Part shown: positions 23,105 to 55,776 of the stretch, piece after piece
Layout of the letters: the number at the start of each line of letters is the position of its first letter
Numbering within the stretch: the first letter of the stretch is position 1
NCBI GenBank assembly: GCA_964384235.1
Contig: CAYLJX010000003.1
Location: 8,389-72,388, forward strand
Reading direction: 5' to 3'
Length of the DNA: 64,000 bases
Source of the DNA: an uncultured Bdellovibrionales bacterium
Lineage (GTDB): Bacteria > Patescibacteriota > Minisyncoccia > Moranbacterales > UBA1568
The notes under the pieces: model-generated
What the model was told of the DNA's origin: nothing
The model's database searches: none
What the model saw: only the letters and a program-made list of their open reading frames with translations
Program-made: the position numbers and the translations under genes

Positions 23105-23206
23105 TGTTGAGTGAGTAGTGAGTAGTTTGTAGTGAGTAGAAAAAATTCAAAAAATCCAGTCGGTATCATTGTTATCGGTCTACCGACTACTCACTACGAC
23201 CTACTC
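23105..23206. repeat. heptamer array (AGTGAGT x4), a 45-nt spacer, then the inverted array (ACTACTC/ACTACGA/CCTACTC)
   Basis: gagtgagtagtgagtagtttgtagtgagtag...ctactcactacgacctactcactc sits immediately upstream of the ATPase start codon. Confidence 0.6.
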
Positions 23207-23629
23207 ACTCTTGATCAGTCCCTTCTCCACGAGGCCCTGGTAGAACTTGTCAGCGAGCTCGTCGTGCATCTTGTCGAGAACGTAGTAATCCTTGAGCTTG
23301 CGCGCGACAGAGACCGCGTGCACGACGCCCTTGGTTCCGGCGAGGTCGACGAGCTTCTGTACTTTTGATTCCGCATCGGTCACATCGGCGATACTCTTGG
23401 CATCCTGATGAGTATCCGTATCGGTATCGTCACCCACCTGCTTGGCCGCACCGCCGGCCTTCGAGAGGATCTCATTGAATGTCCCTTCCGCTTGCTCGAC
23501 CGACTGCTCCGCTTGCTCGACCTGTCGCTCAGGCACGTTCGGAACCTCCTGTCCCTCGCCTCCAACCGTTTTCATCTCCTCCGGCTTCGCCTCCTGTTTC
23601 GTCTCCCCGAGAGTCAGTTCTTCAGCCAT
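23201..23629 (-). CDS. hypothetical acidic protein (142 aa)
   Basis: ORF with a Glu/Gln-rich N-terminal half. No family recognised. Confidence 0.45.
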   Translation of the reverse strand: MAEELTLGETKQEAKPEEMKTVGGEGQEVPNVPERQVEQAEQSVEQAEGTFNEILSKAGGAAKQVGDDTDTDTHQDAKSIADVTDAESKVQKLVDLAGTKGVVHAVSVARKLKDYYVLDKMHDELADKFYQGLVEKGLIKSE

Positions 23630-23654
23630 ACTCGTTTTCCTCTATCGTTTATGA

Positions 23655-23960
23655 TTACACCAATCCTTCCTTCATCTCTTCCTTAAACTTCTCGACGACT
23701 TCCTTCACGAAGGCCCCGTAACCGGGAATCTTCTGCTCGAAAAACGCCTCCACTTCTTCCTGACTGGCCGACTTGTCGAGCAACCCTTCGTATTCCTTCA
23801 CGCCGGCGTCTCCGAGCTTGTCCATCGTCTCGAGAAAGATCCGTTTGAGGAGCGCCTCCCCTATCTGGGAAAGCAGCGCTTCCTGCTTTTCCGTCGGGAG
23901 CGTCTCCAGATGAAACGTTTCAACGAGTTCTTTCTTCAGTGCTTCTTGGTCGAGAGTCAT
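23655..23960 (-). CDS. hypothetical small acidic helical protein (101 aa)
   Basis: ORF between heptamer-repeat tracts. No family recognised. Confidence 0.45.
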   Translation of the reverse strand: MTLDQEALKKELVETFHLETLPTEKQEALLSQIGEALLKRIFLETMDKLGDAGVKEYEGLLDKSASQEEVEAFFEQKIPGYGAFVKEVVEKFKEEMKEGLV

Positions 23961-23964
23961 ATTT

Positions 23965-24016
23965 TTTTAGTTAGTAGTGAGTAGTTGGTAGTGAGTAGTT
24001 ATGGTTGGTAGTGAGC
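23965..24016. repeat. heptamer array AGTGAGT/AGTTGGT x about 7 (single orientation)
   Basis: tagttagtagtgagtagttggtagtgagtagttatggttggtagtgagcag. The unit is the same as at 23105. Confidence 0.55.
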
Positions 24017-24025
24017 AGGAGAAAG

Positions 24026-26578
24026 TCAGAAGCGGATTTCTTTGCCGGTGCGAAGTGCGATCGTCATGATACGACGGGTATACTCGTCGACGGTTTCCCC
24101 GGCCTTGGCATAGGAGAGCGGTCCGAGCGCCTTCTCCGCCGCCTTGGTAAACAAGTCAAGCCCCTTCATCTGGGAATAATGCAACGGATTAAGGGAACGG
24201 TCGTAATTGGTGAAGGGATTGCCATTCAGTTTCCCATAGTCACCGAGGACCCGACCGACTTCCGCTCCGCCCAACGCTTTCGCGTTTTCCGTGTACTGAT
24301 ACTCGAGACCGGTCATTCCTTCTATCTCACTCGTCTGAAAGATTCCCATGCGGATATTTCCCAGTCCCCGGTTGAACTGTCCGATCATTTCGGGATTCTC
24401 CGCGAGGTACGCTTTGGGGTTGCTGTTGATGAGGTTCTCTTCCTGGACGCGGACGGCATCCTCCACCGACACATCCCTCACTGCCGGTTCAGAGACCACT
24501 CCGGAGACGGTCCCTTCCGCCGGTACCGCGGCTTCCGTGCCGACCTGCCCGGCTACGGCTTCCGCCACGTTTTTCCCTGGGATATATTCCCCGGAGAGCG
24601 CCTTGTCGATATCCTGCGCGTTGAGAATCTGACCGAATTTGATCGTATCGCCGGCATAGATCTTTCCGATATCGCCATCCGGGAATCCTAAGCCTTTGAG
24701 CTGTTCCGGCGACATGTCATGCAGCTTGTTTTGGATCGCATTTTCCAGGGACTGGATCGCCTTCACGCGGTCAGCACCATGGAGGTCTTCCGGGAGCTTG
24801 GCATCGATGATACCCCAGAGACCCCGCTTGCCATCGGCCGATGTGAGATGATAGTCCTCGAGGGAGAAACTTATCTTTTCAGGTGTCACAGAAGCCGCTC
24901 CCTCCGCTGCGGGAGCTACTGCTGCTACTTCCGTCGCGGCGATTTCAGGCGAAGCCATACCTGCCTCTGCTGAAGGAGTCGCCTCAGCCGACGACCCTAC
25001 GGTACCAATACCCATCTTCTCCGTGATGATCTGCCCGAGCCAGCCGGAACCGACCGCCACGCCAAGTCCCAGTGCAGCGCCTTTACGTACTTTCTTCCAG
25101 GCTTTCTCGTGTGAAAGTCTCTCATCAAGGTCAAAAATATTCCCTTTCAGCATCGCACTTGCTTTGTCGAAATCGATGATTTTCCCGTTTCTTTCTTCAA
25201 CCGCTTTCTGATCGGTCTCGAGAGTAGGTTCCTGTCTCTCCTTTGTGGTGAGTTCCTCCATCGCTTCAGCCACTTCCCTGTCCGCTTTCGATTCTCGACG
25301 CGCTGCAGCCACCTTCTCAAGCCCGGTTTCCGAAGTGACAAAAAGTGCCGATCCGGCCATCATGTTTCTCACCTTGTTGATACCCAAAGCGAGCGCTCCG
25401 CCCGCCACTCCCCCGAAAGCGGCCGTCGTAGCCGCCCCGGTAAGGAGAACCGCGGTGATGGCGATCTTTTCCGCACCGGAAAGCCGGTTGTACCATCTTC
25501 CGAGCGCCCCGAACGAGTCAAGCGCTTTGGTTGGCCAGTTACGATGCTCCGCCTGATACTGCGTCCGCGCGTCCACGAGCTTTATCGTCTCGCCAAGCTT
25601 CACCTCTTTGAGGAGGTTTCCCATTCCCTCTTTGAGCTCCATTCCGGAAAGGTTCCCTTGCTTCAGCTGCTCAAGCTCGAGGTTCTGCAGATCCATGAGC
25701 TTGTTCATGTACTTGGCCTGGTAGTAATTCACCTCGGCATGCCCCTTTTCCTGCCATTCGCGTTCATCCAGTCCTTTCAGTGTTTTTCCAAAAAACTTCT
25801 GCACTCGCGCCCATGCGTTGGTGTTCTCATGGTCCTCCTTCACATACTCCGCCCGCATCGCCTCGACTTCCCCACGAAGCTTGGCGATCCGCTCTTCGAG
25901 AGGAGATTCTTCCGTCTTCATCTCCGGCTTCAGACCAAGTCCCTCTTCGACGACTTCTAACCGGTCAGCCGGCGTCTCGAAAGGCTTTTCCATCTCCGCC
26001 TGGACTTTTTCCGACATGAACTCCTCCGCCTTCAGCTCGGGAATGTCTTCGGTCTTCGTCGCATGCTGATCTGCAGTCGCAGGCACACTTACGTTCTCAG
26101 GACCATCCGTCTCTGGTTTGTTCAATGGTTCCGTTTTTCCCCAGTCTCTGTATACCTCATCCTGATAGTCAGCGTAAGCTTTCGATTCCTCTTCCGTCTG
26201 TACTCGAGGAGTCGGTTCGGCAGCCGAAGCGACATCCGCCACCTGCGGTTCCGAGACGTTAAACGCATCCAGTTCCTGCTGCGCCTTGGCGATATGTCGA
26301 TTCTCACTGCCGAGAAACGGATTGACGGCATTAGCCTTATCAAGATTCTCGCCAACCTTTTTCTTTGACGCCATCCCCCGTGCCGTTCTTTTTCTTGTCC
26401 GCAAAGACTTCTGTTGGTCTTCGTCACCGGCTTCATTATCGGAATACTCTATCGGATTCTCCTTTTCAAGAATCTTCAAGGCAGCCGCTTTCGCAAGCGC
26501 CACCTGCTCCTCGTGGGACTTCTTTTGTCTTTCCGGTCTTACCGGTTGTTGGATATTTTCCATGCCCATAGGGTTCAT
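24026..26578 (-). CDS. very large hypothetical membrane/surface protein (850 aa)
   Basis: Charged Glu/Lys-rich N-terminus, a glycine-rich hydrophobic cluster (ITAVLLTGAATTAAFGGVAGGALALGI ... GAALGLGVAVGSGWLGQII), an Ala/Glu-rich linker and a C-terminal globular part. No family recognised. Confidence 0.55.
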   Translation of the reverse strand: MNPMGMENIQQPVRPERQKKSHEEQVALAKAAALKILEKENPIEYSDNEAGDEDQQKSLRTRKRTARGMASKKKVGENLDKANAVNPFLGSENRHIAKAQQELDAFNVSEPQVADVASAAEPTPRVQTEEESKAYADYQDEVYRDWGKTEPLNKPETDGPENVSVPATADQHATKTEDIPELKAEEFMSEKVQAEMEKPFETPADRLEVVEEGLGLKPEMKTEESPLEERIAKLRGEVEAMRAEYVKEDHENTNAWARVQKFFGKTLKGLDEREWQEKGHAEVNYYQAKYMNKLMDLQNLELEQLKQGNLSGMELKEGMGNLLKEVKLGETIKLVDARTQYQAEHRNWPTKALDSFGALGRWYNRLSGAEKIAITAVLLTGAATTAAFGGVAGGALALGINKVRNMMAGSALFVTSETGLEKVAAARRESKADREVAEAMEELTTKERQEPTLETDQKAVEERNGKIIDFDKASAMLKGNIFDLDERLSHEKAWKKVRKGAALGLGVAVGSGWLGQIITEKMGIGTVGSSAEATPSAEAGMASPEIAATEVAAVAPAAEGAASVTPEKISFSLEDYHLTSADGKRGLWGIIDAKLPEDLHGADRVKAIQSLENAIQNKLHDMSPEQLKGLGFPDGDIGKIYAGDTIKFGQILNAQDIDKALSGEYIPGKNVAEAVAGQVGTEAAVPAEGTVSGVVSEPAVRDVSVEDAVRVQEENLINSNPKAYLAENPEMIGQFNRGLGNIRMGIFQTSEIEGMTGLEYQYTENAKALGGAEVGRVLGDYGKLNGNPFTNYDRSLNPLHYSQMKGLDLFTKAAEKALGPLSYAKAGETVDEYTRRIMTIALRTGKEIRF

Positions 26579-27942
26579 TTTTTCTCAAGACTTTCACTGA
26601 GAAGCGCCTGTATGAGTCCTTCGTGCCGGTCCTGCGGTATCCCTGTCTTCTCCTGTAGAAATTTCATCACTGTCTCCTTGATTCGCGGGACAAGATCACT
26701 CAACCATACCTCGTCACGCGCTTTTTTCGACACGCCCTCACCGTAAAGTCCGTGCTTGAAATCCTTTTGGATTCCCTGTACATATTTTATGAGCGTAGTT
26801 TTTTTCCGATCACCATTTGGTTCCTGGGAAAAATATTCTCCCAATGAATTTTCTTGTGAAGGCGTTTCCTTCTTTTTTTGGAGTTGAAATACGTCCAAAT
26901 CCTCCACAAGTGCTTTCAGTCGCTCTGACACCTTCTTCTTATCAAGAGGACTCCCCATCTTCGCAAGGATTTTGCTCTCTTGCGCCTGGTCGTTCATCTG
27001 CTTCAAGAGATCCAACAAACGATTCCGGTCATCCTCCTGCAGACTGGTCATCTCATGAAGCTTTTCCTGGTTCTTCCCGATGAGTGTTTCCGCTCGACCG
27101 ATCATCTCCTCTATTTCCCGATCCAACTGTTTCTCGGAACCTTCCGATTGCAAAGGAGCGTTTCCTGGTCCTTTCTCATTCGGAACACTCTTCTTCCGGA
27201 AATCATCAAGTTGCACCACATCGGCAGATCGCACCTTCACCTTTGTCTCTTCTCGCTGTGAAGTTGAGACACCGAAGGGTGAGGGTATCGTCTCATTATT
27301 CTTTTTCTTTTCCGGTTCTGCCACCGCTTCCGCAGTCTCCTCTGCGGGTGCTACCGGTACGGACTGAGGGGATTCTACCAGTTCTGTCGCTACAGTCTCC
27401 GTTACTGGAGGTTGTATAGGTTCTGCCACGGCTGCAGGCTCTTCCACCGAGGAAGACGTAGGAATCTCAATTGGCTCTACATCCTGTACTGTTTCTTTTT
27501 GAACAGGATTCTTTTTGGAAATCTCTACGAGAACTCGATCTATATCTTCCTGATTCGGAGATCCTATCGCCCCTGACCGACGGCTTTCCAGGTTGAAACC
27601 TTCGTTTCTCAAAAAATCCTTGAGTTCATCGATTCCTTCGAAAATATGATCGCCCGTCCTGTCCTTGCGAGTACTCTCGGTCCGATAACGAACCCGTATA
27701 TCTCCTTCCCGAAGCGATTCGATACGGATCACATGATGAGGATTCTTCCATTTGTCTTTCTGACCAAGACTCTCCAAGTCTTTCTCCCGTTTGGCGACCG
27801 TCTCGGGAGACTCCGGGGACGCCGAACCACCGGCGGATGTTTCCTCGCCAGCCTTCGCTTCCAATTTATGAAAAAAATCGAACACAGCCGTGTGCGTTTC
27901 CGTTTTCTTTGCTATAATCTTATCATAAGAAACAAAAAACAA
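26575..27942 (-). CDS. hypothetical protein with Pro/Glu/Val-rich linker (455 aa)
   Basis: Overlaps the upstream 850-aa gene by 4 nt (translationally coupled). It has a low-complexity PxxP/E-rich centre. Confidence 0.55.
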   Translation of the reverse strand: MFFVSYDKIIAKKTETHTAVFDFFHKLEAKAGEETSAGGSASPESPETVAKREKDLESLGQKDKWKNPHHVIRIESLREGDIRVRYRTESTRKDRTGDHIFEGIDELKDFLRNEGFNLESRRSGAIGSPNQEDIDRVLVEISKKNPVQKETVQDVEPIEIPTSSSVEEPAAVAEPIQPPVTETVATELVESPQSVPVAPAEETAEAVAEPEKKKNNETIPSPFGVSTSQREETKVKVRSADVVQLDDFRKKSVPNEKGPGNAPLQSEGSEKQLDREIEEMIGRAETLIGKNQEKLHEMTSLQEDDRNRLLDLLKQMNDQAQESKILAKMGSPLDKKKVSERLKALVEDLDVFQLQKKKETPSQENSLGEYFSQEPNGDRKKTTLIKYVQGIQKDFKHGLYGEGVSKKARDEVWLSDLVPRIKETVMKFLQEKTGIPQDRHEGLIQALLSESLEKK

Positions 27943-27982
27943 ACAAATCGTCGCGGGTCAAAATCAGCCCGCGAGCACGAGT

Positions 27983-29599
27983 ATGTTCGAACAAAAAAAG
28001 TATTCCTTGCTTTCCGGACTGCTTCTCGTCGCCATCCTGCTCCTCGCCCTCTTTCTCCGGAGCTACCACATCGAAAGCATCCCTGCCGGACTCTATCCCG
28101 ACGAGGCGACCAATGCCACCGACGCCCTCCATGCCATCGAGACCGGCGACTACCGGCTCTTCTACCCCAACAACTACGGTCGTGAAGGACTCTTCATCAA
28201 TCTCCAGGCCTTTGCGCTCCAGCTTTTCGGATACAGCGTCGCGGCGCTGAAGTTCTGGTCGGTGATTTTCGGCACCCTCACCGTCCTCGGCGTGTATCTT
28301 CTCGGCAAAGAACTCTTCCGCCGCCGGGCCGCCGGTCTCGCTGCCGCCTTCATGACAGCCACCGCCTTCTGGACCATCAACTTTTCACGCATCGGCTTCC
28401 GGGCCATCATGATGCCGTTCCTTATTTCGTTCACGTTCTTCTTTTTCTTCCGCGGACTGCGGACCAGGCGGTACCTCGACTTCGTCTGGAGCGGACTCTT
28501 CCTCGGTCTCGGACTCCATACCTATGTCGCGTTCCGGCTCACGCCGCTCATCTTCGTCGTTCTTCTGCCGGCCCTGTTTCTCTCGTATGAGAAGTTCCTC
28601 AAGCGCTATTGGAAACACGCTCTCGCCTTTTCTTTCGCTGCTTTCGTCGCGGCCGCACCGATGTTCTACCATTTCTTCGTCACCAACCCGGAGGACTTCG
28701 CTTCCCGTTCCGCCGCCGTTTCCATCTTTTCCCCCGAAATCAATCACGGCGACTTCTTCGGGACGCTCGGCAAGACCTTCAGTCTCTCGCTCATCAAGTA
28801 CAACTTTCTCGGTGACCAGAACTGGCGTCACAACTATCCGCCCTATCCGATCCTCGACCCGCTGGTCGGCACGTTCTTCCTCGCCGGTTTCCTCTTCGTC
28901 ATCTGGCAGATCGTCCATCAGGTTATCATCCGTTTCCGCGATCGCAACCGCGAGATCGACCTAGTACGGAACACGTTCCTTCTCGGTTCGTTCTTCGTGA
29001 TGCTCATGCCGGAATTCCTCACCGAGGAAGGATTGCCCCATGCCCTGCGCGCCATCGGCACCCAGGTACCCGTCTTTCTCATCGCCTCATTGCCAATCCT
29101 CTGGATTCTCCGACAGATCCATCGCTCACAGGCCGGATCCCGCCTGATACTCACTTCCCTCCTGGTCCTCTTCCTCGCGGGGAGCGCTCTCATCAATATC
29201 ACCAAGTACTTCGTGTTCTTCGCACAGAGTCCCGAACAGCACGGCGCCTTCGATGAGCGCTACACCAACATGTCCCGCTACCTCCTCTCCCTGCCCGCCG
29301 AGACCCGCAAGTATGTCCTGACCAACGCCGGCGGCACCCATATCGACAACGGCCTCCCCGTCACCGCCCAGCCGATCGCCTTCCTCACCTATGGGAAGAT
29401 CGAGAATCTCGACTACCTGCAGCCGGATACCCGCATCGACCGCAGCTATGAGAATATCATCGTCTTCCAACGAGACGACGACCGGGTCGTCGAGAACCTC
29501 AAAAAGCGCGTTCCCGATGTGAAGATCGAAAAGATCGATCCGCGTCCGGAATTCGGCGGAGGTTTCACCGTCGCCATCCTCCCGGCCTTGCAGAAATGA
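27983..29599 (+). CDS. GT-C family glycosyltransferase (ArnT/PMT-like, polyprenyl-phosphate-sugar dependent)
   Basis: 538 aa polytopic membrane protein. Its N-terminus LYPDEATNATDALHAIETGDY... with DE in the first periplasmic loop is typical of the GT39/GT83 (PMT_2) family. Confidence 0.7.
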   Translation: MFEQKKYSLLSGLLLVAILLLALFLRSYHIESIPAGLYPDEATNATDALHAIETGDYRLFYPNNYGREGLFINLQAFALQLFGYSVAALKFWSVIFGTLTVLGVYLLGKELFRRRAAGLAAAFMTATAFWTINFSRIGFRAIMMPFLISFTFFFFFRGLRTRRYLDFVWSGLFLGLGLHTYVAFRLTPLIFVVLLPALFLSYEKFLKRYWKHALAFSFAAFVAAAPMFYHFFVTNPEDFASRSAAVSIFSPEINHGDFFGTLGKTFSLSLIKYNFLGDQNWRHNYPPYPILDPLVGTFFLAGFLFVIWQIVHQVIIRFRDRNREIDLVRNTFLLGSFFVMLMPEFLTEEGLPHALRAIGTQVPVFLIASLPILWILRQIHRSQAGSRLILTSLLVLFLAGSALINITKYFVFFAQSPEQHGAFDERYTNMSRYLLSLPAETRKYVLTNAGGTHIDNGLPVTAQPIAFLTYGKIENLDYLQPDTRIDRSYENIIVFQRDDDRVVENLKKRVPDVKIEKIDPRPEFGGGFTVAILPALQK

Positions 29600-29642
29600 T
29601 TTTCAAAAAATACCCTCCAAATGGTAACAACATAAAACGTTT

Positions 29643-31577
29643 ATGGAACTTCTCAAAAAACACGCTGGTCGGATCGTCCTCCTCATCCTCGTCCTCTTCT
29701 TTGCCGTCTCACTCGTCGTCTCCCGACAGGAATCCACCACCATGGACGAGAAGGCCCATATCCCCGCCGGGTACAGCTACGTCCGCTATGGTGACATGCG
29801 TATCAATCCCGAACATCCGCCCATGCTCAAGGATTTCGCCGGGCTGCCGCTTCTCCTCCTCGATCCGCAGCCGGTGATGCCGCAAAGCGACCCCCTCTGG
29901 GAGAGCGGTGACTGGTTGGACAAGACGAAGTTCCCCGAGGGACCGGCCCGTACCTGGGGACTCGCCCAATGGAACTTCGGTGACACAATCCTTCATCAAA
30001 ATGGGAACGACGCCGACGCGATCACCTTCTGGTCACGCTTCCCGATCGTACTGGTCGCCATGCTTCTCGGTTTCTTCGTCTATCGCTGGACCAAGGAACT
30101 CGGTGGGACGCTCGCGGGACTCTTCGCCCTCGTCCTCTATGCCTTCGATCCCAACATCATCGCCCACAGTCACTACGTGACGACCGACATCGGCATCGCC
30201 GCCTTCATCTTCATGTCGATGTACTACTTCGTCCGCTTCCTCAAGGACCCGAGCGGAAAGAACGTCATCCTCTCCGGTCTCTTCCTCGGTCTCGCGGAAC
30301 TCGCCAAGTTCTCCGCCGTCCTTCTCTTTCCCATCTTCGGACTGTTCACGGTCGCCTACGCCCTCACCTTCCAGGTGAACGGGACCTCCGTATGGAAAGC
30401 CAAGTTCCTGAAGCTCTGGGAATACCTCTGGAAATATGCCGCCTCCGTGGCGGTCGCCTTTGTCGCCATCTGGATCCTCTACTTCGTGAACACCATCAAT
30501 ATGCCGGGCGAGGTCATCGCGGAGATCGCCCGCGCCCAGTTCCCCAATGACCGTAGCCTAGGACGACTGGCGGAAACAGCCGTCATCGCGATGAGCAACG
30601 TCCCCGTCCTCAAGCCGCTTGCCGAATACTTCCTCGGCGTCTTCATGGTCTTCGCACGCGTCGCCGGCGGCAACACCTTCTACTTCCTCGGCACCGTCTC
30701 CAACCACGCCGATCCCTGGTACTTCCCGGTCGTCTTCTTCCTCAAGGAAACCCTGCCGTTCCTCTTCCTGCTTCTTTTCACCACTCTCTACACCCTCTAT
30801 CGCATCGGCCGCTCCGTCGCGATGGAAGAGACGAAAAACATCCGATCGCTCTGGAACCTCTTCGCCCGATCCTTCCAGCACCGCATCGCGCAGTACCTGG
30901 CCGCGTTCTTCATCCTCTTCTATGCGTACGTGAGCATCACCGGCAACCTCAACATCGGCTTCCGTCATCTCTTCCCCATCCTGCCGTTCCTCTACATGCT
31001 CGTGGGGAAGACTGCCTTCGACTTCCTCAAGCGCCACCAGGAGGAGATCGCGACGCACGGGCTCATCCGCTTCGCGCTCGGTGCCGTCGTCCTCGTCATC
31101 ATCGCCATCCCGGTCCTCTCCTACCCGAGCTACCTCTCCTATTTCAACCCCATCGGCGGCGGCCACGAGAACGGATACAAATATGTCACCGACTCCAACT
31201 ACGACTGGGGTCAGGACCTCAAGCGCTTGCGGAATTTCGTGGATCAGTACAATGGTTGTCAGGATAGTACGACCACATCCATCGACTGTACGAAGATCCC
31301 ATTCGTACCAGGAAGCAGCGAGATCGACAAGATCCATGTCGACTATTTCGGCGGATCGAATCCGCAGTACTATCTCGGCGACAAGTATGTCCCGACACAC
31401 GGCGAAGCCGCCCCGGGAACCGGCTGGTACGCCGTCTCCATCGGCTTCCTCCAGGAGAGCACCCACAAGGAACTCAAACCCGGCGACATGAGCTACCGCT
31501 GGCTCGTCGACAATCATGAGCCCGTCGCCCGCGCCGGCGATTCCATCTTCATCTACTACGTCCCGGAAGAAGAGTAG
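29643..31577 (+). CDS. GT-C family glycosyltransferase (ArnT/PMT-like), paralogue of the preceding gene
   Basis: 644 aa. Same architecture (TM1, a MDEKAHIPAGYSY loop, and more than 10 TM helices) plus a larger C-terminal periplasmic domain. Confidence 0.7.
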   Translation: MELLKKHAGRIVLLILVLFFAVSLVVSRQESTTMDEKAHIPAGYSYVRYGDMRINPEHPPMLKDFAGLPLLLLDPQPVMPQSDPLWESGDWLDKTKFPEGPARTWGLAQWNFGDTILHQNGNDADAITFWSRFPIVLVAMLLGFFVYRWTKELGGTLAGLFALVLYAFDPNIIAHSHYVTTDIGIAAFIFMSMYYFVRFLKDPSGKNVILSGLFLGLAELAKFSAVLLFPIFGLFTVAYALTFQVNGTSVWKAKFLKLWEYLWKYAASVAVAFVAIWILYFVNTINMPGEVIAEIARAQFPNDRSLGRLAETAVIAMSNVPVLKPLAEYFLGVFMVFARVAGGNTFYFLGTVSNHADPWYFPVVFFLKETLPFLFLLLFTTLYTLYRIGRSVAMEETKNIRSLWNLFARSFQHRIAQYLAAFFILFYAYVSITGNLNIGFRHLFPILPFLYMLVGKTAFDFLKRHQEEIATHGLIRFALGAVVLVIIAIPVLSYPSYLSYFNPIGGGHENGYKYVTDSNYDWGQDLKRLRNFVDQYNGCQDSTTTSIDCTKIPFVPGSSEIDKIHVDYFGGSNPQYYLGDKYVPTHGEAAPGTGWYAVSIGFLQESTHKELKPGDMSYRWLVDNHEPVARAGDSIFIYYVPEEE

Positions 31578-32004
31578 CTTTCTTTCACTCTCTCCAGTCA
31601 AAGTCTCCCTTTTCGGAGTCGCTCGCCCGTCCGGCGCGCAACCTCACTCCTGAAGCTCCTTCGCTCTCCTCCTTGCCAGTCGGAACCATGCCCCCGCCTA
31701 GCCGGCGAGGCTGGCGCTTTCGGATCTTCAAGACTCCGAAAAGGAATCTTTGCCTTCCGTTCGAATAAAAGACTCGGAGCTTCCCTGTTTCTTCTCTTAT
31801 CCCTTCCTTCCCGAACAGCAACTCTTTTCGAGACTTTTACAAATTTTTTGCTTCAGTTTTTTTTCCTACCCTAAAGAAAAAATTTGTACTAAGCGAACGA
31901 AACGACTACGGAGAAACATACATTACCACAGATGATGTTGGAGTGAGTGAGCGGGTCGAGAAAGGAGGTTGCTGGAGGAAAGGAAGAAGGAGAGGGAAAG
32001 AAAA

Positions 32005-33879: not shown

Positions 33880-33933
33880 AGGGAAATCAGGAATAAGGAA
33901 TGATGAATGATGAGGCGAGCAAGAGTGCAAAAA

Positions 33934-35088
33934 TCATAATTCCTTATTCGTCATTCCATATTCATCGACAAGTTTCCGTATTTCTTCTTGGAAATGCCGT
34001 TTTGAAAAACGTTCTACAGAAGAACGCATACGCGTTTCGTCGTATTTCCCCTCTTTCTCCAGAAACCGACGCACGCCTTCGGCGATGATTTCCGGCGTCG
34101 CCGCGTGAAAGAGCTCGCCGGTGATACCCGGTTCCACGATTTCGCGGATGCCACCATACTCGTACCCGATGACCGGTGTCCCGAAGGAGAGCGCCTCCAC
34201 CGCCACCATGCCGAAATCCTCCTCGGACGGGAAGATGACAGCCCGCGTTTCACGGTAGTATTTCGCAAGTGCTTCATCCGACGCGAACCCGAAAAAGGAA
34301 ACGTTGTCTGCCGCGATACTCTTCAGTCGCTTCTCTTCCTTTCCCGTTCCCACGATGACGAGCGGGAACCCCAGCTTGTTGAACGCTTCGATCACCGCTT
34401 CGACCTTCTTGGCTCTGGTAAGACGCGACACGACCAGAAAGTGACGGCGTTTCACGTCGTCACCCTGAACTTGTTTCAGGGTCTTTGTGGCCTGCTCGGA
34501 CAACCCAAGCGCTGGCGGGTACACCACCACGCTTTCCCTCCGATAGTACTTGCGCACGCGCTCTTCGGTGAATTTGGAATTGGCAATGAGGAAGTCCGGG
34601 CGCTCCGCCGCTTCTCGGTCCCAGAGTCGCAGATACGAGAGAAGGAGCCGCGTGAAAATCCTTCGCTTCCCTCGCGGCTGCAAGTCGTCGAGATACTCGG
34701 CGTGCGTATCCCAGGCGTAGCGCATGGGCGAATGGAGATACGCGATATGGGTCGTGTTGAGCCGCGTCACGATCCCCTTGCTCCAGGCGCCAGAAGACGA
34801 GATGACGAGATCGAAGTCGCGCAGATCGAACGTCTCCACCGCCACCGGAAAGAACGGCAAAAGCCACCGATACCGCTTCCGGAGGAATTTCGGAAACTTC
34901 TGAAGAAACGATGGACGGATATCCCGATTTTTGAAGTGTCCTTCGACAAGCTCAGGGTTGGCAAGCAACGTATAGATCGGCGCCTCGGGAAACATCTCCG
35001 CAAACGCCTCAAGCACCCGCTCCGCTCCACCATATGAAACGAGAAAATCATGAACAAGGGCGATTTTTTTGTTGTTCGGCTGGTTCAT
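33934..35088 (-). CDS. glycosyltransferase family 4 (GT-B, retaining)
   Basis: C-terminal EX7E-type motif region ...FPSEEDFGMVAVEALSFGTPVIGYEYGGIREIV... The start was taken at MNQPNNKKIALVHDF. Its ATG overlaps the stop of the next gene (ATGA). Confidence 0.75.
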   Translation of the reverse strand: MNQPNNKKIALVHDFLVSYGGAERVLEAFAEMFPEAPIYTLLANPELVEGHFKNRDIRPSFLQKFPKFLRKRYRWLLPFFPVAVETFDLRDFDLVISSSGAWSKGIVTRLNTTHIAYLHSPMRYAWDTHAEYLDDLQPRGKRRIFTRLLLSYLRLWDREAAERPDFLIANSKFTEERVRKYYRRESVVVYPPALGLSEQATKTLKQVQGDDVKRRHFLVVSRLTRAKKVEAVIEAFNKLGFPLVIVGTGKEEKRLKSIAADNVSFFGFASDEALAKYYRETRAVIFPSEEDFGMVAVEALSFGTPVIGYEYGGIREIVEPGITGELFHAATPEIIAEGVRRFLEKEGKYDETRMRSSVERFSKRHFQEEIRKLVDEYGMTNKEL

Positions 35089-36200
35089 TTTTCTTTTCTT
35101 AACAACCCAATAATGCCTCGAGAACATCTTTCCCAGGAAAATTTTTCGACATTCTTCTTTCCTTTTTCTATTATACCACCCCGAAAAACTTCATCTGAAA
35201 GGACTTTTTGTACCGCGTCGGCTATCGCTTCGGCACTCGAAGGATCGCAATACGCCGCCCCCTCGCCTGCCACTTCCGGAAGCGATGAAGTATCTGACGT
35301 CACCACCGGCACCCCTACCGCCTGCGCCTCCAGGACCGGGATCCCGAATCCTTCATACAGCGTCGGAAACAGAAATACGTCGGCATTTTTCAACAACTCC
35401 CATTTCTCTTCCTCGATCACATATCCTCGTTCAACGATGTCGTCCGCGACTTTTGCCTTTTGCCTTTTGCCTTTTGCCTTTTCATACCCATACCCCGGTT
35501 TTCCCACAAGCACGAGCTTATGCGGTATCTTGTATTTCTCTTTCAAAATCCCAAACGCCTCGATTATTCGTACGACGTTCTTTCTTTCTTCCAATCTCCC
35601 AATGAATAAAAGGTATTCTGTATTATGTATCTTGTATTTTGTATCCGATACTTGATACTTAATACCTGATACTTGATACCGATTCTCATATCCTTCATAC
35701 ACCACCTTCACCCTCTCCTCCGGCACGCCATACAATTTCACCACGTCGCGCTTGGTATTCTCCGACACGGCGATAACCGTTTCCGACACGCGCACCGAAA
35801 AGCGGATGGAATAGCGCATATAGATCCGCTCCCACCAAGAGTACGCCTTCGGACAGAATTCGTATTCGAGCCCGTGCACCGTCACGATGGTCTTCTTAGG
35901 GTGAATGAGCGGCACCGTGTGCGCCGGCACGAAAAGCACGTCCGGCGGATGAAAAAACATCTCCAGGGACAGCCGGATCTGTGTCCAGAACCTCGGCGCC
36001 CAGAGCTTCTTCACCCGCCAGTGCTTCGGAAGGTCAAAAGAAACCTCTTGATCGGAACGGATATACAAAACTACCCGATCATTGTTCGGTATGGCATCAC
36101 GCAGGTGCCTGATCACCTGGTAGCTGTATTCTTCTATTCCCGTCCGTCTCTTCAGAAACGCCCTCGATGCGTCGATACCGATTATCATAGTCAAGTTCAA
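35085..36200 (-). CDS. glycosyltransferase family 4 (GT-B) containing in-frame heptanucleotide repeat tracts
   Basis: ...FLFPTLYEGFGIPVLEAQAVGVPVVTSDTSSLPEVAG... GT4 signature. It contains (TTTTGCC)x4 at 35451-35478 and a nine-unit heptamer block at 35620-35682. Confidence 0.75.
   Translation of the reverse strand: MNLTMIIGIDASRAFLKRRTGIEEYSYQVIRHLRDAIPNNDRVVLYIRSDQEVSFDLPKHWRVKKLWAPRFWTQIRLSLEMFFHPPDVLFVPAHTVPLIHPKKTIVTVHGLEYEFCPKAYSWWERIYMRYSIRFSVRVSETVIAVSENTKRDVVKLYGVPEERVKVVYEGYENRYQVSGIKYQVSDTKYKIHNTEYLLFIGRLEERKNVVRIIEAFGILKEKYKIPHKLVLVGKPGYGYEKAKGKRQKAKVADDIVERGYVIEEEKWELLKNADVFLFPTLYEGFGIPVLEAQAVGVPVVTSDTSSLPEVAGEGAAYCDPSSAEAIADAVQKVLSDEVFRGGIIEKGKKNVEKFSWERCSRGIIGLLRKEK
35451..35482. 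repeat. (TTTTGCC)x4 + TTTT heptanucleotide tract inside the GT4 gene
   Basis: cgac ttttgcc ttttgcc ttttgcc ttttgcc ttttcat encodes EKAKGKRQKAKVAD on the minus strand. The unit length is not a multiple of 3. Confidence 0.8.
35620..35682. repeat. heptamer array TGTATnn x4 followed by the inverted array GATACnT x5, inside the GT4 coding sequence
   Basis: tgtatta tgtatct tgtattt tgtatcc gatactt gatactt aatacct gatactt gataccg. The 63 nt block is in-frame and encodes ...YENRYQVSGIKYQVSDTKYKIHNTEY... Confidence 0.75.
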
Positions 36201-38860: not shown

Positions 38861-38913
38861 GTATAGCACATTTTCGACTCCTTGTCCACCCTAAGTAAGT
38901 GAGTGAGTGAACC

Positions 38914-47228: not shown

Positions 47229-47233
47229 CCTGC

Positions 47234-50793: not shown

Positions 50794-50826
50794 ATTGTAC
50801 CACAAAAGAAAAAAAGAGGCATCAGG
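50794..50826 (-). terminator. intrinsic terminator overlapping the ruvX stop (AGAGGCCTGATGCCTCT + TTTTTTTCTTTTG on minus strand)
   Basis: A hairpin and T-run lie immediately at the stop codon of the 50822 gene. Confidence 0.55.
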
Positions 50827-51250: not shown

Positions 51251-51292
51251 GACTTTCGCCTTCTTTCAAGGTTTTGAGAAATTACAAAAACG

Positions 51293-51376
51293 TATCATGT
51301 ATCAAGTATTACGTATTATGTATAAAAGCAAATCATTCCCCATACATAATACATGATACGCAATACACAATACTCC
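51293..51376. repeat. heptamer array GTATnnn x5, a spacer, then the inverted array nATACnn x5
   Basis: gtatcat gtatcaa gtattac gtattat gtataaa agcaaatcattcc ccatacataatacatgatacgcaatacacaatactc, in the intergenic region between map and ruvX. Confidence 0.65.
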
Positions 51377-52144
51377 CTATCTTGTCACGACTTCCGCTCC
51401 TGTCTCAGTGATGACCACCGTGTCCTCGAAGTGTGCCGAAAGCGACCCGTCCGCCGTGACGAACGTCCAGCCGTCGGAGGCGATCCGCACCGGGAAACCG
51501 CCTGCATTGACCATCGGCTCGAGTGCGAGTGTCATGCCGGCCTCGAGGAAAAAATCGTGCATGCCGCGCGAGACATAGTTCGGCACCTGTGGCTCCTCAT
51601 GGAGCTCACGCCCCACGCCGTGTCCCACCAGGTCGCGCACCACCGAACAACCGTTCGCCTCGACGAATGACTGTACGGCCTGCGCATAGACGGAGATCCG
51701 TGCCCCGGGCTTCAGTTCGGCGATGCCCCGATCGAGACTCTCTTGTGTCACATCCAAAAGATGTTTGGCTTCGGCGGAAATATTTCCTACCGGAACCGTC
51801 CGCGCCATGTCAGTCACCATTCCCTCATAACGCAGACCGATATCGAGCTTCAAAAGGTCACCGTCATGCAGTACCCGGTCCCTCTTCGGAATGCCGTGCA
51901 CCACCTCGTCATTGAGCGACACGCACAAAGAAGCCGGAAACGGTGTTCCCGACTCTTTGCCATATCCCTTGAAAATAGGAGTCCCTCCTTCTTCACGGAT
52001 CAACCGTTCGGCGAGCGTATCGATCTCCTCCGTCGTCATTCCCGGCCGGACGCTTCGTATCACCGTATCGAGCACGCGAGCGAGGCGCTTGCCTGACTCG
52101 CGCAGTCGCCTCACCTCATCGTCGGTTTTGATCCACTGTTTCAT
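51377..52144 (-). CDS. map: methionine aminopeptidase, type I
   Basis: ...FKGYGKESGTPFPASLCVSLNDEVVHGIP...HGVGRELHEEP... The start was taken at MKQWIKTDDEV, 7 nt after the adk stop. The ORF track extends 46 codons upstream into adk. Confidence 0.85.
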   Translation of the reverse strand: MKQWIKTDDEVRRLRESGKRLARVLDTVIRSVRPGMTTEEIDTLAERLIREEGGTPIFKGYGKESGTPFPASLCVSLNDEVVHGIPKRDRVLHDGDLLKLDIGLRYEGMVTDMARTVPVGNISAEAKHLLDVTQESLDRGIAELKPGARISVYAQAVQSFVEANGCSVVRDLVGHGVGRELHEEPQVPNYVSRGMHDFFLEAGMTLALEPMVNAGGFPVRIASDGWTFVTADGSLSAHFEDTVVITETGAEVVTR

Positions 52145-52151
52145 ACGAATT

Positions 52152-52820: not shown

Positions 52821-52856
52821 CTAAACAGGATAAAGAATTTAAATTTCAAAAGGAAA

Positions 52857-52974
52857 AACTTTCATGTTTGAGTGCAGTTCTAGGCGTAACCGAGGAACGA
52901 GGTAAGCTGTATTTCCAATACAGTGTCCGAGTCCCGGAGGTTACAACAACGAAATGCACCAAACAGGGAAGTTT
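52857..52974 (+). repeat. MITE-like intergenic repeat, copy 5
   Basis: aactttcatgTTTGAGTGCAGTTCTAGGCGTAACCGAGGAACGAGGTAAG-CTGTATTTCCAATACAG-TGTCCGAGTCCCGGAGGTTACAACAACGAAATGCACCAAACagggaagttt. It lies between the secY stop and the adk start. Confidence 0.7.
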
Positions 52975-54246
52975 TTAGAAGCTCTCGTAGCTTCGCATGG
53001 TCAGCTGGCTCTGAATATGCTTGATCGTCTCGAGCACCACCGAGACGACGATGAGGATAGAGATACCCCCGATGGAAAAGGCCTGGATACCGGTTATCCC
53101 CTGCACGACGAAGGGAAGCACGGCGATCGCCCCGAGAAAGAGCGACCCCGCGAGCGTGATACGGTTGATGATGTGGTAGAGATACTCGGCTGTCGTATGA
53201 CCGGGACGCACCCCCGGGATATATCCCCCTTGCTTCTGGAGGTTCTCCGCGATCTTGACCGGATCGAAGACGACCGCGGTGTAGAAATACGTGAAGAGCA
53301 CGACCAGGACGAAGTAGATCCCGCCATAGACCCACTGGTTCTGCAACCACGCCGAGACCGAGAGGGCGATATCCGCGACGGAAGCGTTCCCGGACTGCGC
53401 CAAGTAGTTCGCGACCATGGTCGGAATGAGGATGAGCGAGACGGCGAAGATGATCGGGATGACACCGGCCTGATTGACCTTGAGCGGCAGATGTGTCGCT
53501 CCGCCGCCAGCCATTCCTGCCCCGCGCACCCGCTTGGCATACGATACCGGAATGGTCCGCTGACCTTCGTTCACGAAGATCACTCCCGCGATCGTCACCG
53601 CCGCCAACAGGGCGAACAGGATATAGGTGAAGACCTGCGACGGATCCCAGGTCGCGAGGAAGCGCGATATGCCGGTCGGCAGGCTGGTCACGATACCGGC
53701 GAAGATGATCATGGAGACGCCGTTCCCGAGACCCTTCTCGGTGATGAGTTCGCCGAGCCACATGAGGAAGATGGTACCGGCCGTGGCCGAAATCACGATC
53801 ACTGCCGTATTGAAAGGCGAAAGGTCGGCAAGAATATTCTGCGAGCGGAGAAGCGAGAGCATACTGAAAGACTGGATCGCCGCCAAAGGTACCGTGAGCC
53901 ACCTCGTCCACATGTTGAACTTCTGCCGTCCCTGCTCTCCTTCTTCCTTGTAGAGCTTTTCGAGGGACGGCACGATCGTCGTCATGAGCTGCATGATGAT
54001 CGAAGCCGTGATGTACGGGGCGACACCGAGAAGCACAATGGAGATATTGGAGAGCCCGCCACCGGAAAAAACGTTGAGGAGTCCGAGGAGCGTACTCTCC
54101 TCGAACAGTCGTTTCAACGCCAAAACATCCACTCCGGGAAGAGGGATGTTGGCGGCGATACGGTAGATCACGAGCACTCCGAGAATGAACAGGATCTTGT
54201 TCCGGAGTTCGGGAACCTTGAAGATATTGAGAAGGGTTGCGTACAT
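52975..54246 (-). CDS. secY: preprotein translocase subunit SecY
   Basis: 423 aa with 10 TM helices. NIFKVPELRNKILFILGVLVIYRIAANIPLPGVD is a canonical N-terminus. Confidence 0.95.
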   Translation of the reverse strand: MYATLLNIFKVPELRNKILFILGVLVIYRIAANIPLPGVDVLALKRLFEESTLLGLLNVFSGGGLSNISIVLLGVAPYITASIIMQLMTTIVPSLEKLYKEEGEQGRQKFNMWTRWLTVPLAAIQSFSMLSLLRSQNILADLSPFNTAVIVISATAGTIFLMWLGELITEKGLGNGVSMIIFAGIVTSLPTGISRFLATWDPSQVFTYILFALLAAVTIAGVIFVNEGQRTIPVSYAKRVRGAGMAGGGATHLPLKVNQAGVIPIIFAVSLILIPTMVANYLAQSGNASVADIALSVSAWLQNQWVYGGIYFVLVVLFTYFYTAVVFDPVKIAENLQKQGGYIPGVRPGHTTAEYLYHIINRITLAGSLFLGAIAVLPFVVQGITGIQAFSIGGISILIVVSVVLETIKHIQSQLTMRSYESF

Positions 54247-54311
54247 GGGAGAAGTTTTTTGTTTATACCCCTGCCAAAAATACCAAGTACGGAAGCATCA
54301 GGAGTTTCCGT

Positions 54312-54725
54312 CTACTTCTTGAACGCTTCCTTGGCCTTTTCGGAACAAGCGACACTCTCATCGAGACCAAGTTTCTTCTTGAGGGTGCCCGTCGCGACGA
54401 TCTTCGCACCGGCGACGAGCGCCTTCTTCGGAACCACCCGCTTCTCGATCAGGGTGGCGAGCGTCACGGTCTCTCCGTCGGAGAAACGGGCTTCCAACTG
54501 ATCAAGGGTCACGGTGTACTTCTTGGGATGAACGGACTTGAAACCGCGCACCTTCTTGAGACGCTCGGTGAATGTCGAGCGACCACCTTCGAAGAGCGGG
54601 TCCTTCTTCTTGCCGTGCGCACCCTGACCTTTCGTACCGCGACCGGACGTCGTGCCGCGCTTGCCGCCGCGTCCGATGCGCTTGCGCTCCGGCTTCTTGG
54701 TAACTTTGAGCGTGTGGATCTGCAT
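54312..54725 (-). CDS. rplO: 50S ribosomal protein L15
   Basis: KRIGRGGKRGTTSGRGTKGQ is a glycine-rich L15 N-terminus. Confidence 0.9.
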   Translation of the reverse strand: MQIHTLKVTKKPERKRIGRGGKRGTTSGRGTKGQGAHGKKKDPLFEGGRSTFTERLKKVRGFKSVHPKKYTVTLDQLEARFSDGETVTLATLIEKRVVPKKALVAGAKIVATGTLKKKLGLDESVACSEKAKEAFKK

Positions 54726-54760
54726 ACTGATTATAGCAAAATGATGATGTTCTTCGGAAC

Positions 54761-55288
54761 TTACGCCTTCGCTGTCTCGGCCGGCGCTGCTTCTTTCTTT
54801 TCTTTCGGCGGCTTCAGGTCCTCCAGAGCCTTCACGGTCACACGGGCGACATTGAGCGGGTTGGACGCGCCGAGCGATTTCGAAACGATATCCTTGACCC
54901 CCAGGAGATCAACCACGGCACGGACCGCACCGCCGGCGATGATACCCTGACCCTTGGAGGCAGGCTTGAGGAGCACTTTGGCGCTCCCGAGCTTGGCTTT
55001 CACATCGTGAGAGATGGTCGAACCGTCGAGAGTGACCGCAATGAGGTTCTTCTTGGCATCATTGAAAGCCTTCTGGATGGCATCGGACACATCGGATCCC
55101 TTGGCGACACCGACACCGACCTTGCCCTTGCGGTTGCCGATGACGAGCGTGGCACGGAAACGGAACCGGCGACCACCCTTCACGACGCGGGTCACGCGCG
55201 CCAAATTGAGGAGTTTCTGGTCGAACTCCGGTTTCTCGCGTCGCATACCGCCGCGCTTTCCCTGTCTTGGTCCTTGCTTCATTGCCAT
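54761..55288 (-). CDS. rpsE: 30S ribosomal protein S5
   Basis: VTRVVKGGRRFRFRATLVIGN.KGKVGVGVAKG is a canonical S5 dsRBD and C-domain. No rpmD (L30) ORF lies in the 35-nt gap to rplO. Confidence 0.95.
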   Translation of the reverse strand: MAMKQGPRQGKRGGMRREKPEFDQKLLNLARVTRVVKGGRRFRFRATLVIGNRKGKVGVGVAKGSDVSDAIQKAFNDAKKNLIAVTLDGSTISHDVKAKLGSAKVLLKPASKGQGIIAGGAVRAVVDLLGVKDIVSKSLGASNPLNVARVTVKALEDLKPPKEKKEAAPAETAKA

Positions 55289-55310
55289 ACTCCTTCCTTA
55301 AACTAAAGGC

Positions 55311-55666
55311 TTAAAACTTGAGTCCTCCCTCGCGCGCCCCTTCGGCGAGCGCCTTGACTTTCCCGTGATAGCGATAGCCCGAACGGTCGAAGACCGCCTC
55401 GTTCACCCCTGCTTTGACGCACTTCTCGGCGAGAAGCGCTCCGACTTTGGCCGCGCTTTCGACCGTGTGCTTCGCCTTGACGCCGAGATCGGCGAGCTTG
55501 GCGGAACAGAGGGTCTTGCCGGTCACGTCATCGATCGCCTGAACGGAGATGCTCCGGAGGCTGCGGAAAACGGAAAGACGAGGCTTCGTTGCCGTGCCGG
55601 AAATCTTAGCTCGGACGCGGCGCTTGCGCTCGAACCGTTTCGCTTTTCTTGCTGCTTGATTGATCA
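55311..55666 (-). CDS. rplR: 50S ribosomal protein L18
   Basis: RKRRVRAKISGTATKPRLSVFRSLRSI...YHGKVKALAEGAREGGLKF. The start was set at MINQAARKAKR, since the ORF track extends 25 codons into the repeat spacer. Confidence 0.85.
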
Positions 55667-55679
55667 TAATATCTAGCTT

Positions 55680-55776
55680 TCTAGCTTCGTTAGCTTTTAG
55701 CTTCGTTAGCTTCCTAATTTCATCAGCCGTTATTCCTAACAAGCTAGTGAAGCTAAGAAGCTAGTGAAGCTGATCT
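55680..55776. repeat. heptamer array TAGCTTC-like x5, a spacer, then the inverted array GAAGCTA-like x4, inside the spc operon between rplF and rplR
   Basis: agctttc tagcttc gttagct tttagct tcgttag cttccta atttcatcagccgttattcctaacaa gctagtg aagctaa gaagcta gtgaagc. The TAGCTTC array also occurs at 3333-3372. Confidence 0.65.

Follow-up and report, generated by a model that had tools for sequence, protein, structure and literature searches.

We analysed a 64,000-nt stretch of contig CAYLJX010000003.1 (hereafter the window), which derives from an uncultured member of the Moranbacteria, and found short tandem arrays, mostly of heptamers, that are at five sites followed by an inverted copy of the array and thus form imperfect hairpins. 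As palindromic repeat elements, these hairpins form a class found throughout the lineage, and at least some of its families are dispersed as copies and constrained in sequence. The elements are periodic, their arms pair, they extend from stop to start codon and they belong to families, at least one of which is conserved above the neutral level; in proteins they occupy orthologous in-frame positions, and their unit numbers change in steps that keep the frame. We favour, with moderate confidence, the interpretation that they are palindromic repeats generated by slippage and dispersed by copying, which form intercistronic hairpins on the mRNA in a genome without Shine-Dalgarno enrichment, and whose function we infer.

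Period-7 arrays and hairpins in the window

The window was scanned for tandem arrays of at least four units with at least 75% match, and the expected numbers were derived from third-order Markov sequences. Twelve period-7 arrays were detected compared to 0.30 expected (approximately 40-fold) and four period-6 arrays compared to 0.37 expected, while the same scan at periods 8 to 15 yielded no array in the window. Given these numbers, the preference for 7 nt over other periods, which a preliminary description of this DNA had noticed by inspection of the sequence, is real and no bias of reading. Tandem Repeats Finder reported period-7 arrays at 23110-23139, 23968-23999, 35613-35644, 35647-35679, 51292-51323 and 51342-51373, and period-7 arrays with 100% match at 11938-11966, 12034-12058 and 35450-35482. 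The intergenic arrays are imperfect, with 70-84% match.

The four sites at which the preliminary description had seen an array facing its inverted copy carry the sequences described there; a fifth full hairpin, between prfA and prmC, had been overlooked together with four arrays (10379-10415, 13077-13120, 33882-33916 and 35450-35482). Hairpin 1 (23105-23210, minus strand; -39.2 kcal/mol in sense, z -5.6) reads in sense as a stop-proximal arm of the GAGTGAGTAG type, a loop and an ATG-proximal arm of four CTACTCA units; the stop-proximal arm overlaps the stop codon (23201-23203) of a 142-aa gene, and the start of the VirD4/TrwB-like gene (23101) follows 3 nt after the hairpin. Hairpin 2 (35613-35680, minus strand) consists of four to five GTATnnn and five nnnATAC units, lies in frame within a GT4 glycosyltransferase gene and encodes the peptide RYQVSGIKYQVSDTKYKIHNTEY. 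Hairpin 3 (51289-51376, minus strand), also built from GTATnnn and nnnATAC units, begins immediately past the map stop codon (51377-51379) and leaves ~38 nt to the ruvX start. Hairpin 4 (55672-55776, minus strand) occupies the rplF-rplR spacer, beginning 1-5 nt past the rplF stop codon (55777-55779) and ending ~5 nt before the rplR ATG (55667). It is an inverted-array hairpin as proposed before, but not one of heptamers: the units of this AGCTTC/GAAGCTA family measure 8-9 nt and form a super-unit of 16-17 nt, and the same correction applies to the single array at 3329-3368, which is an array but lacks the 7-nt unit assigned to it. Hairpin 5 (11493-11628, plus strand; -49.1 kcal/mol, z -6.6) bridges the prfA stop and the prmC start; its 5' arm (GACAGTCAACAGAAAACAG) falls within the final codons of prfA, and its 3' arm, a CTGTTTT array, ends ~10 nt before the prmC ATG (11638).

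The four inverted pairs of arrays noticed before fold with -17 to -41 kcal/mol and z-scores of -4.5 to -6.6 on either strand, and none of 200 shuffled sequences was as good, in agreement with the hairpins proposed from the sequence. Hairpin 3 is more stable in sense (-33.0 kcal/mol) than in antisense (-22.4 kcal/mol), and its stem is followed only by a weak GUUUUUG. Scans for terminators and promoters flagged none of the array hairpins, either as intrinsic terminators or as sigma-70 promoters; elsewhere, at ~12545-12580, 3385-3435 and 10345-10380, the window does contain canonical GC-rich terminators with a U tract. An Rfam scan of the window at the gathering score returned five tRNAs and no other family. 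The intercistronic stems reach the minimum of ~20 bp of processing hairpins for RNase III.

Unpaired arrays upstream of the genes for a DUF5663 protein, HolB, PrfA and a PolB-exonuclease-like protein are predicted to be unstructured, with a minimum free energy (MFE) of 0 to -2 kcal/mol. On the minus strand, a single-orientation array with the sense units CTACTCA/CTACCAA (23964-24016; MFE 0) fills a 65-nt spacer up to 3 nt before the start of the DUF5663 gene (23960), an array with the sense units TCATCAT/TCCTTAT (33882-33916) stops 2 nt short of the holB start given in public assemblies (33879), and the GAAGCTA-type array already mentioned (3329-3368) lies between a canonical terminator and the start of the PolB-exonuclease-like gene (3324). 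On the plus strand, a TTTGACT-type array (10379-10415) lies past the rpmE terminator and extends to 5 nt before the prfA ATG (10421). Overall, eight of the ten non-coding arrays end at most 10 nt from a start codon (P ~4e-7 under random placement in non-coding DNA). A degenerate ATTTTCC-type array (13077-13120, assigned to neither strand) adjoins no credible start codon; it lies in a 550-nt AT-rich non-coding stretch between divergent genes (12760-13306). The AGTGAGTGAGTGA tracts at 38898 and near 31935, which had been listed as further recurrences, turned out to be short period-4 runs, the former an (AGTG)n tract at 38892-38910 and the latter trivial.

The window is 89% coding, with most genes on the minus strand; its gene map was made with a codon-usage model and Pfam, and gene starts were taken from this map and from public gene calls. 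A Shine-Dalgarno core, defined as at least 4 nt of AGGAGGT at positions -4 to -20, precedes 12 of the 70 genes of the window (17%) compared to 19.6% of random 17-mers, i.e. there is no enrichment, and the genes preceded by arrays have no such core upstream. These results suggest that initiation in this Moranbacterium is largely independent of Shine-Dalgarno sequences.

Array hairpins in operon spacers and protein loops of relatives

The nearest L18 relatives of the window are metagenome-assembled genomes (MAGs) of Candidatus Moranbacteria/Moraniibacteriota with at most 73% identity, and a search of Joint Genome Institute (JGI) metagenomes for closer relatives gave no L18 above 71% identity. 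The placement in the Moranbacteria, which are part of the Candidate Phyla Radiation (CPR)/Patescibacteria, agrees with the GT4 and PrmC homologues. We surveyed 1106 ribosomal-protein spacers from 66 Moranbacteria loci and the window, with gene boundaries in the relatives set by tblastn. The spacers in relatives measure either about 5-35 nt or about 80-135 nt, and the long ones are mostly array hairpins; 811 of the 1106 spacers are shorter than 40 nt, and lengths of 80-120 nt form a second peak. Many relatives carry numerous arrays of period 7, 8 or 9. In three genomes (L016, L019 and L029), nearly all ribosomal-protein spacers are ~100 nt long and consist of array, loop, inverted array and ATG, compared to one to five long spacers in most other Moranbacteria genomes. 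The rplF-rplR spacer of the window, which had been singled out as unusual, is so in comparison with other bacteria. The actinobacterial and Bacteroidetes loci retrieved with the same query have no such long spacers.

One strong hairpin makes up 91 of the 204 spacers of 60-150 nt, a count that rests on shuffles keeping mononucleotide composition only and that includes many orthologous, hence non-independent, copies. The stems of the strong spacer hairpins begin a median of 5 nt past the stop codon and end a median of 11 nt before the start codon, and their arms have a period of 7 more often than 8, and 8 more often than 9. Occupancy is uneven. The spacers S14-S8, S8-L6, L6-L18 and L14-L24 are often filled, and L3-L4, L4-L23 and L29-S17 essentially never are, except in the three saturated genomes. 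At L6-L18, different clades carry different unit families, and some close relatives have no hairpin at spacers that are filled elsewhere.

The rplF-rplR element belongs to a family of ~105 nt with a 5' arm AGCTTCACT/AGCTTCTT, a loop GTTAGAAATAAYGGCTGATGAAATTAGG and a 3' arm of GAAGCTAAC and similar units. Using nhmmer, we detected 12 distinct copies of this AGCTTC family in eight assemblies, located at L2-S19, L22-S3, S14-S8, S8-L6 and L6-L18; all 12 are in sense orientation and the loop is conserved. One genome (L007) contains five copies, of which the one at L2-S19 has the diagnostic variants of the S8-L6 copy of another genome (L003) and not those of its siblings in L007. Between genomes, the element is 78-88% identical compared to 66-83% for the flanking L6, L18 and S8 genes, and since the roughly four-fold-degenerate third positions of these genes are only 24-53% identical, the element is conserved above the neutral level. 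Its consensus stem comprises 29 pairs; four of them are conserved G.U pairs, and one in the apical stem shows clear G-C/A-U compensation. The final one to three units of the 3' arm are often unpaired ahead of the ATG, and short 'empty' spacers in relatives often keep one to three AAGCTA units. The element arms behave as inverted repeats. In general, the array elements measure 60-110 nt, are AT-rich to neutral in composition, start with ACAGCTTCAC and have no GTAG/CGTC tag. A phage vector for the AGCTTC element was considered and rejected, as no exact 21-mer match to the element was found in IMG/VR.

Within open reading frames (ORFs), arrays occur only in multiples that preserve the frame, and the preliminary description had rightly placed the tracts of GT4 and PrmC in frame. 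The peptide encoded by hairpin 2 corresponds exactly to the linker between two Pfam domains of the GT4 protein, both of them Rossmann domains. GT4 orthologues of ~69% identity have the same linker peptide, and one of them (L180) also has the same GTATnnn/nnnATAC hairpin in its DNA; in another (L179), the linker is encoded by a hairpin of a different unit family and reads NFESNSN...KFKIQNSK. A palindromic element is thus found in frame at a tolerant protein segment, the interdomain linker of GT4, in the window, L179 and L180. A second, perfect array of this gene (35450-35482, minus strand; CTTTTGC x4.7 on the plus strand) encodes AKGKRQKAK in the C-terminal domain and shows no change in length compared to orthologues. 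In prmC on the plus strand, a perfect ATTTCCA x4.1 array (11938-11966) encodes ISNFQFPIS and represents a 6-aa insertion relative to Escherichia coli HemK (2b3t), and a perfect TCATATC x3.6 array (12034-12058) encodes ISYLISHIS and represents a 7-aa insertion, i.e. 21 nt or three units, relative to the same protein. PrmC orthologues with ~60% identity also have ISNFQFPIS, in place of which one orthologue (P0126) has KYQVSSIK, corresponding to the translation of a GTATCAA-type unit. Since the GT4 and PrmC loops, like the operon spacers, are occupied in orthologues by the same or by other units, they are long-lived array-hosting sites at which the unit can turn over. Regarding the GT4 locus itself, two neighbouring GT4 genes (33934-35127 and 35085-36188/36200) share a 43-nt overlap at 35085-35127.

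The number of units differs between strains and species. A scaffold 99.4% identical to the window (L181) has a deletion of 21 nt in GT4 between GTAT registers, corresponding to three heptamers or seven codons, and orthologous arrays of different species differ by whole units, namely by 7-nt steps in the L14-L24 family and by one to five AAGCTA units. The 43 extra bases of L181 in an FtsQ-like gene (3826-3835) were considered as a repeat expansion and discarded, as they are a run of N and thus a scaffolding artefact. The genome-specific process suggested earlier is supported: the period-7 enrichment, the perfect arrays in ORFs with a gain of about three units and the 21-nt deletion in the 99.4%-identical strain indicate a process of this genome or lineage that prefers 7 nt. 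The structures are not idiosyncratic to this genome; they belong to families common to Moranbacteria.

Origin, maintenance and possible roles of the elements

According to the interpretation that we favour, units of 7-9 nt, mostly 7, are iterated wherever extra sequence is tolerated, be it between cistrons, in 5' leaders or in protein linkers and surface loops, and many of the arrays are coupled to an inverted copy, giving rise to imperfect hairpins of 60-110 nt. In co-directional operons, the element takes up the whole spacer from ~5 nt past the stop to ~11 nt before the start codon. Units may be gained and lost through replication slippage, the inverted arm may be made and kept complementary by intrastrand template switching, and copies may spread among spacers by some copy mechanism. 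On the polycistronic mRNA the element would fold, leaving ~5 + 11 = 16 unpaired nt between stop and start, similar to an empty spacer; with ~16 nt remaining single-stranded, the insert would be tolerated and possibly used for re-initiation, transcript stability or processing.

With regard to the level at which the hairpins act, the MFE is lower for the sense strand in 54 spacer hairpins and for the antisense strand in 23, which is a significant difference. In the ACTGACA/GGTTGTA family of the L14-L24 spacer, 96.9% of the cells pair in sense, with many alternations between U.G and U-A and between C-G and U.G, compared to 29-47% when the partners are slid; antisense pairing, estimated from the pair table, amounts to ~86%.

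A number of observations weigh against the favoured interpretation. A strand-symmetric count of 230 G.U versus 188 A.C appositions (p = 0.045) is a weak excess, it is confined to the higher-GC genomes (82 versus 39) and strand-biased deamination or mutation could be its source. Covariation does not rise above column shuffles, 63-127 of 500 of which reach the observed values. Given the weak G.U bias and the non-significant covariation, these data suggest an RNA-level constraint on the hairpins and do not demonstrate it. With respect to dispersal, no transposase or RAYT was found among the window proteins scanned against Pfam, and the comparison of filled with empty spacers revealed no recognisable target-site duplication or sharp boundary, the flanks being diverged and the empty sites keeping units. 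Because 'empty' spacers keep one to three units, growth in place and insertion are not cleanly separable. Several arrays have no inverted partner, and the relatives were sampled around the ribosomal-protein cluster and GT4 only. With respect to slippage, the lone 21-nt variant comes from a scaffolded assembly with an N gap elsewhere, and across 18 contigs, which stem from 11 independent samples and share 99.92-100% identity with the window, all arrays are free of gaps, so that the rapid copy-number variation for which the preliminary description had suggested looking is not supported. The sampled population is near-clonal, for which reason the absence of indels is weak evidence of stability; taken together with the whole-unit differences between species, it implies that the arrays change on evolutionary time scales and are no hypervariable switches.

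A bolder version, which we put forward as a speculation and consider rather improbable, is that the stop-hairpin-start modules are both a self-propagating repeat and a lineage-specific cis-acting device for translational coupling or processing in Moranbacteria operons that lack Shine-Dalgarno sequences. The hairpin would keep stop and start ~16 nt apart, and the repeat units would serve as an unstructured landing site. Terminating ribosomes might then re-initiate, or the transcript might be cut and stabilised at the hairpin. The tandem arms would be register-tolerant and self-renewing by slippage and template switching, and spacers and loops would thereby stay occupied while the unit sequence turns over.

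Alternatively, the elements might be selected cis-acting RNA modules, i.e. RNase III-type processing sites, 3' stabilisers or stop-start re-initiation devices, that are maintained by selection and not as selfish or neutral DNA. This possibility, which overlaps with the favoured interpretation and differs from it in the maintaining force, appears to us less probable, yet worth considering. It would account for a conservation far above that of synonymous sites, the single orientation of the 12 AGCTTC copies, the precise placement from stop to start, the non-uniform occupancy of spacers, the filling of L6-L18 and of the same protein loops by different unit families across clades and the wobble-tolerant variation of the sense strand. 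On the other hand, close relatives manage without a hairpin at the same spacers, the hairpins within ORFs have no intercistronic role, the units are diverse (47 consensus units in 86 arrays), covariation is not significant and the antisense strand often folds better in low-GC genomes. We regard it as unlikely, to about the same degree as the coupling device, that the start-proximal repeats are leaders for Shine-Dalgarno-independent translation, either as a landing pad or as a binding site for S1/Csp-like proteins, with the inverted arm being optional, as proposed for the TAACTGA repeats of Beggiatoaceae (PMC4679880). Apart from this precedent, the location of most non-coding arrays within 10 nt of a start, the predicted lack of structure in single arrays, the lack of Shine-Dalgarno enrichment, the one to three extra unpaired units that 3' arms often have before the ATG and the AAGCTA units kept at -8 to -25 in short spacers of relatives are in line with such leaders. 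However, any insert in a spacer of a compact operon adjoins a start, which renders the proximity partly trivial, and the ATG-proximal units, being C/A-rich, T-rich or A/G-rich, share neither composition nor motif; moreover, arrays also occur within ORFs and in a promoter region, distant from starts, and a paired arm would sequester the leader.

Purely neutral, microsatellite-like by-products of slippage, without families, dispersal or function, are improbable. Slippage has been put forward as the cause of the heptamer excess in long simple-sequence repeats of many bacteria (Mrazek 2007, as cited in PMC4692102 and PMC4679880), and the perfect arrays in ORFs, the three-unit indel and the diversity of units would fit with this. 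Yet, slippage alone makes no inverted copy, and it leaves unexplained both the near-identical 105-nt elements, including the loop, at non-orthologous spacers of different genomes and the discrete second mode of spacer length at ~100 nt; an identity of 78-88% despite saturated synonymous sites strains this explanation already. Least probable by far, in our view, are phase-variation switches, iterons or operators, and intrinsic terminators or attenuators. Tandem repeats beside starts are the classic layout of phase-variable genes, but no length variation was seen in the 18 contigs, and the intergenic arrays are imperfect and precede the housekeeping genes rplR, prfA, prmC and holB. The GUUUUUG after hairpin 3 is reminiscent of a terminator, but the hairpins score neither as terminator nor as promoter and canonical terminators are used elsewhere. 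Direct repeats could in principle bind a protein, and iteron-like binding arrays had been proposed on these grounds; this proposal is not supported, as the units vary from site to site, the sites lie within housekeeping operons and ORFs (the spc operon, a type IV secretion-like operon, map-ruvX and ORF interiors) and neither a rep nor a par gene lies next to them.

Comparison with known repeats and further features of the window

Hairpin-forming elements of ~100 nt that are dispersed in compact intergenic DNA, co-transcribed in operons and grouped in families conserved above the neutral level are known as REP/BIME/REPIN-RAYT, miniature inverted-repeat transposable elements (MITEs; Neisseria Correia) and Rickettsia palindromic elements (RPE), the last of which also insert in frame in surface loops of proteins. 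The window elements resemble REP/REPIN, Correia MITE and RPE in behaviour, as they are dispersed hairpins of ~100 nt in operon spacers with in-frame insertion in loops. They differ in that their arms are periodic tandem arrays, that no GTAG/CGTC tag is present, that no target-site duplication was seen, that no associated transposase was detected in the window and that their boundaries are fuzzy. Homology to RPE families, from which they are set apart by phylum and periodic arms, is unlikely. RNase III is known to cut intercistronic hairpins in the early mRNA of phage T7 and in bacterial operons. The window hairpins are, like these, predicted long imperfect intercistronic stems on a polycistronic transcript, but their stems have small internal loops every 5-6 bp and they form repeated families instead of unique sites.

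A full-text literature search gave no paper tying Moranbacteria or Patescibacteria to such repeats, and the repeat hairpins are apparently undescribed. The closest described phenomenon is the heptamer TAACTGA, which forms direct repeats upstream of starts in marine Beggiatoaceae, some Cyanobacteria and Bacteroidetes (MacGregor 2015, PMC4679880). Like the window arrays, these heptamers end a few nt before starts, occur also within ribosomal-protein operons, in spacers without Shine-Dalgarno sequence and occasionally in ORFs, and have no known function (PMC4679880). The window differs from them by its many unrelated units, by periods that are also 8-9 and by belonging to a CPR phylum; TAACTGA is absent from the 64 kb, where a single TCAGTTA and no repeats of either were found. 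The inverted-array hairpin that spans the spacer is new relative to the TAACTGA repeats. Heptamer-rich repeats have also been described as STRR and GGGGAYT repeats of cyanobacteria including Nostoc and as GGGAATC repeats of Xanthomonas (Rehm 2015, PMC4692102). They share with the window arrays a lineage-specific excess of period 7 in intergenic DNA, occasional inverted pairs and a variation in length and sequence between related species at the same intergenic sites (PMC4692102), but are G-rich, are dominated by a single unit in each genome and have been investigated as G-quadruplexes; the window units, in contrast, are diverse and not G-rich, and hairpins with stop-to-start placement predominate. 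The repeats of Borgs (PMC9879509) are likewise pervasive, specific for the type of replicon, both intergenic and located in ORFs, and encode low-complexity peptides; they differ in being long perfect direct arrays with units of at least 18 nt that are divisible by three in ORFs, and in having no inverted pairs.

The significance of the elements lies in the fact that one of them (AGCTTC) is better conserved than the synonymous sites of the surrounding ribosomal genes, and that some small-genome Moranbacteria spend ~100 nt on a repeat hairpin between nearly every pair of ribosomal-protein genes. CPR genomes are very small, ~1 Mb. If selfish, the elements would be miniature repeats of a new form, with arms made of tandem arrays and an ability to colonise protein loops in frame, in a phylum with poorly known mobile DNA; they would also give rise to artefacts of annotation and assembly. 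If functional, they would reveal how polycistronic mRNA is translated or processed in an uncultivated lineage without Shine-Dalgarno enrichment. In either case, they bear on the old unexplained excess of heptamers among bacterial tandem repeats, and they supply many independent alignable instances as well as a natural contrast between nearly all-filled and nearly unfilled genomes.

Two ideas about the units were tried and dropped. A small set of preferred heptamers across genomes found no support in the 47 consensus units of 86 arrays, for which clustering at one mismatch proved too lenient to be informative. Visual inspection of some units had pointed to a UAG-N4 (HutP-like) periodicity, which was given up because other units do not have it. 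Small duplications were observed ahead of two ribosomal-protein genes of the window: upstream of L22 (59880-60401), TCTAGAG TCTAGAG ATTT is followed by ATG, and upstream of L29 (58543-58761) there is a CAAAGTCAAT CAAGTC duplication, with a period-9 array reported by Tandem Repeats Finder at 58750-58781. These mini-duplications before starts may be arrays at an early stage. In the relatives, the S14-S8 spacers (69-92 nt) of L025, L033, L036, L039, L041 and L068 contain a conserved hairpin without arrays, TCGGAAnCGaTTTCCAAGTCCG...CGGAAACGGGAAGTCGA...CAGTAAGAnCTAGACT followed by ATG; this hairpin might serve as a ribosomal-protein leader or else as a regulatory site of the S8 type. Long S10-L3 'spacers' (e.g. 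of L015, L017, L025, L033, L048 and L068) repeatedly contain the motif CTCGTTaAAGTCCC, which may be either a conserved leader element or the result of an L3 start mis-set by the tblastn-based boundaries. Several of the MAGs (L002, L003, L007, L008, L010 and others) are titled 'uncultured Bdellovibrionales bacterium' and cluster with Moraniibacteriota by L18 identity, operon structure and repeat content; the titles look like a taxonomic mislabel in public records.

Around the VirD4/TrwB-like ATPase, the region 18098-31577 encodes large proteins without Pfam match (839, 850 and 455 aa), the DUF5663 protein and two PMT_2-type glycosyltransferases, and may be a surface module of the CPR that resembles type IV secretion systems or pili. 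A gene of the RmuC family is located at 16119-17204 on the minus strand. In E. coli, RmuC has been tied to keeping inversions at short inverted repeats in check, and the gene is of possible interest in a palindrome-rich genome. Finally, the gene at 12604-12756 (minus strand) encodes a small lysine/alanine-rich protein (MAAKKKTTKKKVAKKVTKKKAAKK...) without Pfam match; it contains a perfect 27-nt tandem repeat x2.3 at 12625-12687 and is flanked by a near-consensus TTGACA/TATAAT promoter upstream and a canonical terminator downstream.

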